DNA from: Trichoplax sp. H2
Lineage: Eukaryota
Length of the DNA: 64,000 nt
Assembly: GCA_003344405.1 (NCBI GenBank)
Contig: NOWV01000010.1
Coordinates: forward strand, 124,001-188,000
Direction: 5' to 3'
Positions 520 to 45,100 of this stretch are shown in pieces. Below the pieces are notes generated by a model, which was not told where the DNA came from, searched no databases, and saw only the letters and a program-made list of their open reading frames with translations. Made by a program: the position numbers and the translations under genes. The first letter of the stretch is position 1. The number at the start of each line of letters is the position of its first letter.

Positions 520-915
520 CCAGTAAAGAACTGTACTATAGTTTTACTTTTATCAAAAAATATAAATTTTGTACTTGTACTTGTACTGTACAGTACAGTT
601 CTGTAGTGTACAGTACTGTATTTTATTTTGAAATTTTACACATGGTTTTACTGTACAGTACTGTACTGTACCAGGACTGTACTGTACTGTACAGTACTAC
701 TGTATGGACTTGTAAAGACTACCGTGGTATTTACTGTAGAAGTCCCTGACTGTACACTGTACAGTACACTACAGTACAGTAAAACCATGTGTAAAATTAC
801 GACTGTACCTACGAGCCTGACACGCAAACCGTCGCTTTACTGAATAATTAGTTGTACAGTACGCTACTGTACACTATAGTTCAGCACCATGGCATGGGCT
901 ACGGTACTGTGCTGT
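520..915. repeat. Mixed CAGTA/CTGTA pentamer island in the EBP2-WDR36 divergent promoter region
   Basis: Dense TACAGTA/TACTGTA units in both orientations, lying between the ATG at 381 (-) and the ATG at 1168 (+). Confidence 0.9.
632..798. repeat. Fold-back structure with perfect 25-bp inverted arms (632-656 / 774-798)
   Basis: AATTTTACACATGGTTTTACTGTAC at 632 is the exact reverse complement of GTACAGTAAAACCATGTGTAAAATT at 774. Inner GGACTT...AAGTCC arms continue the symmetry imperfectly. Confidence 0.85.
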
Positions 916-1167
916 TTACTTTGCTTTACCAACACCGGTACACTGAGTGTAACAGGGGTAACTTCCAAAATACTGTAGGGCCTATGGACATGGACCTCAA
1001 GATCTCGAGGCCCTTGCACTGTAAGGAAAAAGAGTGATACGCAAAGTACTCAAGCTCCTTTTCTGCACAGGAGGCTGCTGCAGGATGCTGCTGCATATTA
1101 TTAGCTAACAGCATTCAATTCTGATAGTTAGTTGTATCTATTTGCCGCGTCTGTTGGATATGTTGTT

Positions 1168-4100
1168 ATGGCTCTATCCAATACTTGCAGCAATCTTTAT
1201 TCATATTATCGAGCTATAGGATGTATCTGTAACCATGTACCCTATACGATTCAAATTAAAGGTGGTGAACATTTTGTCATTACCTCGATTGGGAAAACGT
1301 TTCACGTATATAATGTGAGATTTTAGTTTTACGACGTACAGCTATATTCTTTAATGAGCTTTACTTTTTATGTATCAACCCATTACACTGCTATATTGTA
1401 CAATTCTTCAAAATAATACCTTTTATTTCGTTACTATTTTGAACTAATTGCAACTGCGAAGTCTTCAAAACTGAAGCTATTATTTGAAGGTACGGTAGAC
1501 TAGCCTTAATGAGATACTGTACAGCGCTGTAATAAAGGAGCGGAAGGAATTTTACTGATATCTTTTTTATATAAATAACTACAGAACCGATCATATCCTC
1601 CATCTCGTCGAATGACAACTTTTAATACTTGTATTTCATTTCAGGACCGCAGCTTCCTAGCGATATCGAATGTCTTACAGTTAACCCTGACCTAATTTTT
1701 GTTGCCTGCTCTAAAGAGATCTTCTCTTTTCATCGCACAGAAAAAGTAATTGCATGCTGACCTTTTTTGCTAGCTCCTTATTCGCATAATTCTCTACTTG
1801 TGCGAGCCGTTCAGATTTTATCGAATGTATCTCTATTCTATGCTCATCAATTAATGATTGTTCTTACTATTTCGCCAGCGCAATTCCTTTATTGGCCACT
1901 TAGGAAGGATTCATTCCCTTGTTACATTCGGAGAATTTCTATTATCAATTGATGAGAGGAGCAACGTTAAAATTTGGTTTATCGAAACTGCAGGTTAATT
2001 TTATACCACTCTGAAACAGATTTTGCTATGTATTGTCATTAGGAAGTAGGAACTGTCAAGTGCTTTACTCACGATTAATGAATGTTTGCCTTATACTTAG
2101 AGCTTTACACAGAGTTTCAGTTTAATAATCAAGAATTTCGTGTCACTTGTGCTATGCACCCAAATACCTACTTAAACAAAGTTTTGCTAGGCTGCCAACA
2201 AGGCATGCTGCAATTATGGAACATAAAAACTCAGTAAGAGTGCTCTTATTAACATTGAACGTGTAAAATTATAATTTATAAGTCTAAAATGACGACTGAC
2301 TGTGAATACATAGATCGATTAATTACTTTTTTCGTACTGATAACTGTAACCCCTTTCGTTGTTTTAATCATACACACATATATCAGCAAGCTTGTGTATA
2401 CTTTTCGTGGCTGGTCATCATCTGTGTTAACCACTGTACAGGTAAATTTGTATTAGTTGCAAAATTATATAAAATTTTATGAGGCATAATCGGTGTTATT
2501 CGGCGCTAAAAGTTCAATGTACTTATGTGCGTATAATTAAAATGCCCAATAGGCTCCAGCTATAGATACTGTAGCTATCGGTCTTGCAAACGGTTCCTGC
2601 ATCCTTCACAATCTAAAATTAGACAAAACTTTAATGAAATTTAAGCAAGATTCGGGCCCAATCACTTCCATATCATTTAGAACAGGTAAATTCACACTGA
2701 GGATATACGTATTACACTTCAAGCTCTTTCATTCGCTGCACTTTTTTTACAAAACATGCCGTCTTAAAAGTGCTAAATGACTTCCGATTTATCTTAAATG
2801 TAATCTCTTAACCAATCAAGATGGAGTTCCAATTATGGCCACCTCCAGTCCATCTGGATACGTATCGTTTTGGAATCTAAATGAACGAACGCTTTCATCT
2901 ACCTTACGAAATGCTCATGGAGGACTTTGTAAGGTAGATTTCGTAGCAGCTCAGCCTTTACTTATTTCCGGTGGTTCTGATAACACACTCAAAGTATGCG
3001 ATAGAATTAAAGAAGTTTACACTCATAGGACAAAATTTCTTCGTTTATACAGTAGCTGAGATAACTAAATTCACTTCTAGGTATGGGTCTTTGACAAATC
3101 CGATGAAAGCGCTAGGATGTTAATATGTCGTTCGGGACATTGTAGACCACCTAATAGAGCGCGATTTTACGGCAATTCCAGTCAATTAATTATAAGCTCA
3201 GGTATTTTATAAAGTTAAAGTTTTTACTATGTTATCGGCTTTTGATATCTAACCAATCCATAGATGCAACTGGTTCTCTAAGAATTTCTTCCGTTGTTAA
3301 TGATGCCTACGCTCACGAATTATCGAAAGGTTCGCCATTGCATCTGATTTTAGTGTTAACAAAGTAATCTTTCATTATTTTAATAACTGAAGCAACGAAA
3401 TAATATTTAATTGTTTTGTATTAACTACATAACGTTCTATTGAAATAATTTCAAAAGGATACGGCAATGAAAAAAGGATTGAAGTTAGAAATGCCAACAT
3501 AACACAAATAACGGCCTTCGCGTCTGGTAATCATAATTTACTTAATATCTTAAAATATTAGTACAAGAGTACATTACTACAGGATATTTACTCACAGTCT
3601 ACTCTAACCAGATTCTGCTAGAGAAAAAGAGTGGGATAGTATCGTATCATGTCACCTCGGTAGAGCTGCAGCTCTTATGTGGAGCTTTCGTAACAAAAGT
3701 ATTGGCAAGCACAGGTTACGACCACCATCGGATCAACTGGAAAACAATGGTCTAACAACTGCTACCGCTGTAACCATCACGAGTTGTGGAAATTTCGCTA
3801 TTGTAGGACTATCTACTGGCTATGTAAATAAATTTAATATACAATCGGGCCAATACAGAGGCTCTTACGGAAATCCGAAAGGTATAGATAATTACTTACG
3901 TAATAGTAATACGAATATGCCAGCACTCTAGAAACCTACACCATTCTTAGATTAAGCTAATGGTAATCTTCATTTTAAAGCTCATGCAGATTCCGTGCAA
4001 TGCATTCTTAATGATGCCTGTAATCGTCATTTAATAACTGGTGGCTCTGATAAAATACTACAGGTTCACTTAGATTCTTTTATTAAAGCTTTTTACATAG

Positions 4101-44600: not shown

Positions 44601-44836
44601 TATTAATATATCATTACTATGTCTCGAATAAACCACAATATCAATTCAAAACTCATAATTAATAAGATTTGAAATCGTATACTGTACGTGTATTATAAAA
44701 ATCATACTTCTCCGAGAGATTGTACAGATTTCATTGCCCCAACTATCGCTTGATGATCAGCCGATAACTCCTGAGATAGATCATAAGTATTTAATTCTCC
44801 TTTGTTCGATAACGTTTCCAAAATAGTCTTATCCAT
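41607..44836 (-). CDS. FARSA: Phenylalanine--tRNA ligase alpha subunit, cytosolic
   Basis: [111 protein letters not shown]; ends CRLDSRLY*. Confidence 0.97.
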
Positions 44837-44939
44837 GTTACCGAGCAAAGATTAGGTAGATTGATTTAATAATGGAGAAATTGTTTTTTAATTTCAGATC
44901 AGGAACAAGTTCTTTCAGGTCTCTTTAAAAGACAGAGGC

Positions 44940-45100
44940 AGAGTACGGTGCAGTACAGACAGTAAAGTAAAGTACTTACTGAACTGTACAGTTGCTACGG
45001 ACCAGACCTTACAATACACTACAGCGACTACACCGTTGATTTTACGGCCGCTTGATCATTCGGCCACCCTTCGGATACCTTTCCTTCATACAGTACACTA
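44940..45100. repeat. Sparse CAGTA/CTGTA cluster upstream of FARSA
   Basis: Several degenerate units ~100-260 bp 5' of the FARSA ATG. Confidence 0.55.

Follow-up and report, generated by a model that had tools for sequence, protein, structure and literature searches.

The 5' regions of several broadly needed genes in a 64,000-nucleotide stretch of the placozoan Trichoplax sp. H2 (contig NOWV01000010.1, positions 124,001 to 188,000 of the forward strand; the window) carry dense islands of irregularly mixed CAGTA and CTGTA pentamers. These islands are the promoter-associated (ACAGT)n repeat of Trichoplax adhaerens, in print since 2010. The repeated unit is a self-complementary GTAC core plus one A or T, and the arrays turn over by replication slippage or unequal exchange, which adds and removes units as well as whole blocks. 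We favour, with a probability of roughly 0.55, the explanation that a slippage-prone, strand-symmetric GTAC-core repeat is kept at the promoters of broadly expressed genes.

The heptamer TACWGTA, in which W is A or T, occurs 287 times in the window, against 18.41 ± 4.24 times in shuffled sequence, and none of 100 dinucleotide-preserving shuffles reaches 287. The pentamer CWGTA is found 502 times on the plus strand and 497 times on the minus strand, and all five rotations of ACAGT/ACTGT make up the top five over-represented pentamers, at 2.8-3.9 times mononucleotide expectation. Islands were defined as at least four TACWGTA heptamers per 300 bp. The islands, the minor clusters and one weaker site are as follows:

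443-977: island 1, 21 heptamers, between the minus-strand gene at the window start (putative EBP2) and WDR36 (plus strand)
10797-12334: island 2, 67 heptamers in three sub-clusters, between a minus-strand gene (putative UBL) and KDM4 (plus strand)
24121-24436: island 3, 10 heptamers, 5' of the RNF170-like gene (minus strand)
33795-34037: minor cluster, 4 heptamers, within the 5' part of the importin-beta gene
34794-37302: island 4, between the importin-beta gene (minus strand) and the Yip1 gene (plus strand)
37662-38019: minor cluster, 5 heptamers, downstream of the Yip1 start
44940-45100: degenerate unit debris with one perfect heptamer near 45090, 5' of PheRS-alpha (minus strand)

The island positions agree with the initial annotation, which had described irregular mixtures of the two pentamers there. 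The weak site that it reported on the FARSA side, at 44940-45100, does hold units, only in the degenerate form given above.

Island 4 is inflated about two-fold because two stretches in it are each present twice, and one copy of each assembly-duplicated stretch was masked for the density count. After masking, the four islands contain 161 heptamers in 4,007 bp (40 per kb) and the remainder of the window 85 in 58,971 bp (1.44 per kb), a 28-fold (27.9) difference. Single units also lie scattered outside the islands, as had been noted before: with a slightly wider mask of six islands, 76 single heptamers remain, compared with 10-17 occurrences of five composition-matched TA-xxx-TA control words. 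This is 5-7 times the control words and about twice the third-order Markov expectation. The earlier statement that coding exons are free of arrays also holds, as the putative coding open reading frames (ORFs; 10,366 bp) contain six single heptamers and no chains of units. Within the islands, period-5 arrays are reported by the tandem-repeat finder (TRF), for example at 11479-11501 (4.6 copies, 100% matches) and 36088-36118 (6.2 copies, 96%). The window is 66% A+T, and amid this composition island 2 includes a run of 12 C at 11023-11034.

The islands are placed at gene 5' ends, and three of the four lie between head-to-head gene pairs. Heptamer density is 22, 18 and 43 per kb in the three head-to-head spacers, compared with 1.4, 2.7 and 0.7 per kb in the three tail-to-tail spacers. 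The body of an adhesion G-protein-coupled receptor (GPCR) gene contains no TACWGTA in 6.3 kb, against a non-island mean of 1.4 per kb. The edge of the nearest chain is 73 bp from the ATG of the Yip1 gene, where the final chain of island 4 stops, and about 161 bp and 186 bp from the inferred ATGs of the RNF170-like and importin genes, respectively; the end of island 2 is 1.5 kb from the model ATG of KDM4. The genes concerned are:

plus strand: WDR36 (Pfam PF25171/PF25168)
plus strand: KDM4, model ATG at 13809; tblastn of TRIADDRAFT_27796 gives seven exon pieces over 13809-16196
minus strand: RNF170-like gene (RING and DUF1232, by Pfam), inferred ATG at about 23960
minus strand: importin-beta family gene (by Pfam), inferred ATG at about 34608
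plus strand: Yip1-domain gene, ATG at 36903, a weak match under the Pfam cut-off
minus strand: PheRS-alpha (by Pfam/homology)
47500-53786, minus strand: adhesion GPCR (I-set/EGF, GPS and 7tm_2)

The KDM4 exon at 14957-15328 is 100% identical to Trichoplax adhaerens TRIADDRAFT_27796 over 85% of the query. Most of the gene names proposed earlier are supported by Pfam or homology, namely WDR36, KDM4, RNF170-like, importin-beta and PheRS-alpha. The Yip1 name stands weakly, and the names EBP2 (one ORF) and UBL (three ORFs) are unconfirmed, as no Pfam family is found in these ORFs.

This arrangement agrees with published genome-wide results. Wang et al. (2010, Biol Direct 5:18, PMC2871265) report that pentanucleotides are the commonest microsatellite class in the Trichoplax adhaerens genome and that ACAGT accounts for 78% of pentanucleotide repeats; 54% of (ACAGT)n lie less than 1 kb upstream of genes and 85% less than 5 kb. 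They report enrichment at translation and protein-modification genes and propose a role as transcription-factor sites. Their survey took in perfect repeats longer than 12 bp, that is, homogeneous runs. More recently, Chimaera, a convolutional neural network trained on Trichoplax Micro-C, was reported to recover repeating ACAGT as a chromatin-pattern motif (Nucleic Acids Res 2026, PMC12817080). The earlier reading of the arrays as promoter marks is therefore in line with the literature: they occupy 5' regions, above all the promoters of broadly needed genes in head-to-head pairs. The observation holds, and its location is right, but it was known already.

The fine structure of the arrays is strand-symmetric. 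In GTAC-N-GTAC, the middle base is T in 51 cases, A in 47, C in 3 and G in 2. Because GTAC is self-complementary, CAGTA and CTGTA are a single element seen from the two strands, and TACWGTA forms a palindrome centred on the middle base. Among 246 non-redundant units, the middle base is divided 123:123 between A and T. Of 79 neighbouring pairs, 43 have the same and 36 different orientation (p = 0.50 against random), and the near-random order of CAG and CTG that had been expected is thus confirmed. There are 124, 27, 6, 6, 1, 2 and 1 chains of 1, 2, 3, 4, 5, 6 and 9 units, respectively. The successive chain-length ratios (0.16, 0.53, 0.25 and 1.0), taken as a Yule/Polya test of self-reinforcing growth, are too noisy. 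A freely evolving middle base is ruled out, as G or C is present in only 5 of 103 cases. Hairpin-driven correction toward palindromes was dropped as the main randomiser: there are 36 palindromic two-unit words where 39.5 are expected, and 3 palindromic four-unit words where 5 are expected, with no excess.

The turnover of the arrays is visible in two stretches of island 4 that the assembly presents twice:

34663-35170 and 35192-35768: copy pair A, either side of a 21-N gap, unique flanks differing at 1 base
35859-36320 and 36352-36921: copies B1 and B2, either side of a 21-N gap, unique flanks differing at 2 bases

Over both pairs, 3 substitutions are found in about 480 bp of unique flank. Between the arrays within them there are 10 indel rows (2-40 bp) in pair A and 12 indel rows (2-119 bp) in pair B. 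Most likely, each pair represents two haplotypes left unmerged by the assembler. The true length of the importin/Yip1 spacer would then be about half of the apparent one.

Several of the differences between copies are multiples of the unit (5, 5, 5, 15 and 40 bp). Tandem duplication of blocks that carry variant units is also seen: a 15-bp higher-order repeat at 11575-11632 (TRF period 15) consists of a variant unit and two perfect units, three times over, a 10-bp block near 35577 is doubled, and so is a 5-bp variant unit near 34890. The TRF periods found in the window are 5, 10, 12, 15, 17 and 22. Copy B2 at 36641-36802 has an extra 119-bp stretch, partly of unique sequence, and insertions of 4, 11 and 7 bp relative to B1 at 36174-36195; these differences lie between two arrays and have the look of an insertion or deletion for which the flanking arrays were responsible. 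Homogeneous slippage repeats occur in the window as well, in the form of (AT)n and (ATAC)n at 29530-29550, 31454-31476 and 33870-33910, in introns of the importin-beta gene.

Slippage alone gives no random orientation, and therefore something strand-symmetric must act in addition. Selection for a palindromic site and a mutational process are both candidates for this agent. In the explanation we favour, arrays grow and shrink by slippage or unequal exchange, and a strand-symmetric property that is favoured where broadly expressed genes have their 5' ends would keep them there. Candidates for this property are factor binding to the palindrome and a structural influence of the repeat, on nucleosomes or through the formation of cruciforms. 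The central A and T would be equivalent for a property of this kind, and therefore a 50:50 random mix would result. The strong folding of array strands and the 170 inverted-repeat pairs around island 2, both described below, speak for this explanation, and the ACAGT motif recovered by Chimaera is a hint of function.

Several points weigh against this explanation. Slippage predicts runs in one orientation, yet the share of like neighbours (43/79) does not show the homogeneity expected of pure slippage, and a further randomiser of the middle base is needed. Conservation between the two copies does not extend to individual units, so that any selection would act on the presence of an array and not on single sites. 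We know of no factor that binds the repeat. The 5-7-fold excess of single heptamers outside the islands is explained only loosely, and one clean difference between copies at an isolated site, described below, would be a non-slippage product if it is an insertion.

In a neutral alternative, the promoter DNA of highly expressed genes, being open, transcribed and possibly replication-initiating, is a hot spot for the birth and expansion of a hairpin-prone repeat, and the arrays have no function. The hypervariability of the arrays between the two copies is consistent with this, as are the substitutions in middle units, which are alike at the core positions (4, 1, 0 and 4) and at the centre (2 and 2 to G or C). 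Single strands of the arrays also fold strongly (z = -5.3 against shuffles). What a neutral hot spot leaves unexplained is the restriction to one pentamer, the equivalence of A and T and the rarity of G and C. The published ties of the repeat to gene classes and contact maps suggest more than noise, with the caution that both could be proxies for promoters. We consider a purely neutral origin unlikely.

The initial annotation had proposed a different origin, in which a TA-targeting cut-and-paste element with CAG termini, considered here as one of the Tc1/Sleeping Beauty type, hops in open promoter DNA and its excision scars are stacked into islands. Each cycle of insertion and excision would turn a TA into TACWGTA, and the new TA sites would seed further growth. 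The model is mechanically sound. The canonical Sleeping Beauty footprint is TACAGTA or TACTGTA, with three element bases between two TAs and a random A/T centre. The equation of the window unit with a 7-bp TA-to-TA footprint is thus correct, as the two sequences are identical down to the ambiguous middle base. An event of this type would add 5 bp plus a new TA, and the 123:123 division and random order are as expected. Since each hop leaves one scar, a few element copies could leave many.

Other features of the window fit excision scars as well. The single heptamers are scattered at 5-7 times the control words. In five cases one heptamer is followed immediately by another (TACWGTA-TACWGTA, 7-bp spacing without a shared TA; at 443, 11656, 11691, 11735 and 24136), which suggests that the heptamer palindrome, besides the pentamer, is a unit; these pairs resemble two hits in a TATA. 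A 7-bp variant unit, GTAC-ACT-GTAC (TA-CACTG-TA), is present on the plus strand at 752, 10907, 11187, 11292, 11357, 11472, 35440 and 36677, and once in reverse orientation, at 10919. CACTG, with 8 occurrences in islands and 1 outside them, is alone among the non-canonical TA-to-TA spacers in being enriched there, and it could be a fill-in joint of two overhangs. At an isolated site, B1 has TACAGTA at 36006-36010 where B2 has TA at 36494, with identical flanks, and a second B1/B2 difference of the TA/TACWGTA type lies 21 bp upstream, at 35985, with two extra substitutions. Both differences sit in an old 18-bp duplication. If they are insertions, they are what excision scars predict; if they are deletions, they are ordinary losses at TA microhomology.

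Three observations argue against stacked scars as the cause of the islands. First, non-canonical footprints made up more than half of events in the Sleeping Beauty experiments described in the sources consulted, and such words are not enriched in the islands (TACATA/TATGTA 0.4-fold, TACTA/TAGTA 1.2-fold and TACGTA 0-fold, versus 28-fold for TACWGTA). Second, at 334 chain ends the final TA is followed by C in 39% of cases, compared with 18% in the background. The fraction of C at +1 is still 0.32 at the 152 true ends with no further unit nearby (background 0.18), and G at +3 is at background level. The C-rich +1 position means that the repeated entity reaches GTAC, beyond a TA-bounded scar, unless the element prefers GTAC targets. 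Third, variant-bearing blocks are tandemly duplicated, which is impossible for footprints.

The window also offers no donor. No TA-flanked CAG...CTG element with non-array ends is found in it, and all 183 of the 183 candidate pairs with matching 20-nt ends are array sequence. To our knowledge, Tc1/mariner elements have only a slight preference for promoters, and arrays of this kind are not known from Tc1-rich genomes.

For the genome at large, the published survey of Trichoplax adhaerens (PMC2871265) reports no transposon in which every feature required for activity is present. It describes MITEs (miniature inverted-repeat transposable elements) as rare, with one family of about 20 copies, and no transposable element (TE) among 14,572 expressed sequence tags. 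On this account the genome is without active transposons. The arrays nevertheless differ from one present-day copy to the other. The same survey reports three intact single-copy Tc1/mariner ORFs without terminal repeats, which speak for excision scars and are a weak echo in print of the transposase that the initial annotation predicted elsewhere in the genome.

We therefore regard stacking of scars by a hopping element as improbable. A version in which CWGTA is added singly at TA sites by a CAG-ended element or a derived nuclease, such as one encoded by these three ORFs, and in which the islands are scars recording long-term promoter accessibility that slippage later reshaped, seems to us similarly doubtful. 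Our literature search found no report that proposes a footprint origin for this or any microsatellite, or the building of arrays from stacked footprints; for promoter motifs in Trichoplax it gave no papers beyond those cited here. The idea is original and testable, and most of the tests run count against it.

Least probable of all, in our view, is that the arrays are remnants or terminal repeats of a promoter-targeting DNA transposon family. Kim et al. (2025, PMC12221973) describe placozoan housekeeping-promoter hubs and place a loop-anchor motif in Mutator terminal repeats; Mutator is an example of such a family. In the 1.7 kb around island 2 (10700-12400) there are 170 inverted-repeat pairs, whose arms reach 48 nt at 75-97% complementarity. 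These inverted repeats consist wholly of the pentamer, however, and no transposase was seen among the window ORFs listed or tested. The Chimaera authors moreover distinguish two separate Trichoplax motifs and, in the text consulted, link the transposon to ACGG only, not to ACAGT (PMC12817080). As the inverted repeats and the 183 CAG...CTG pairs are all made of the pentamer, they may mislead structure-based finders of terminal inverted repeats and TEs. Dense array-made inverted repeats thus call for caution in structure-based transposon annotation of placozoan genomes.

In this early-branching animal no microsatellite is more abundant than the repeat, which sits at broadly expressed promoters and was first described 16 years ago. 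The random orientation around a GTAC palindrome, the slippage of variant-bearing blocks and the haplotype-like differences between arrays narrow the possible explanations. A factor that binds the palindrome, if there is one, would be a candidate for an architectural or promoter protein in placozoans. If excision scars were the source, they would represent a new way of making regulatory sequence.

Compared with known systems, the window arrays share their organism, unit, upstream position and suggested regulatory role with the (ACAGT)n repeat of Wang et al. The random orientation mix, the GTAC/TACWGTA palindrome, the scattered single units and the hypervariability between haplotypes are not described in the parts of that account available here. 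The ACAGT motif of Chimaera is a model attribution and, as far as its description goes, gives no origin or fine structure. Sleeping Beauty footprints have the same 7-bp sequence, and the arrays differ from them in the missing donor, the missing non-canonical footprints, the GTAC-extended flanks and the duplicated variant blocks. CpG islands and promoter poly(dA:dT) tracts are likewise concentrated at the promoters of broadly expressed genes. The likeness is one of analogy only, and the window arrays differ from both in being made of a specific 5-bp repeat.

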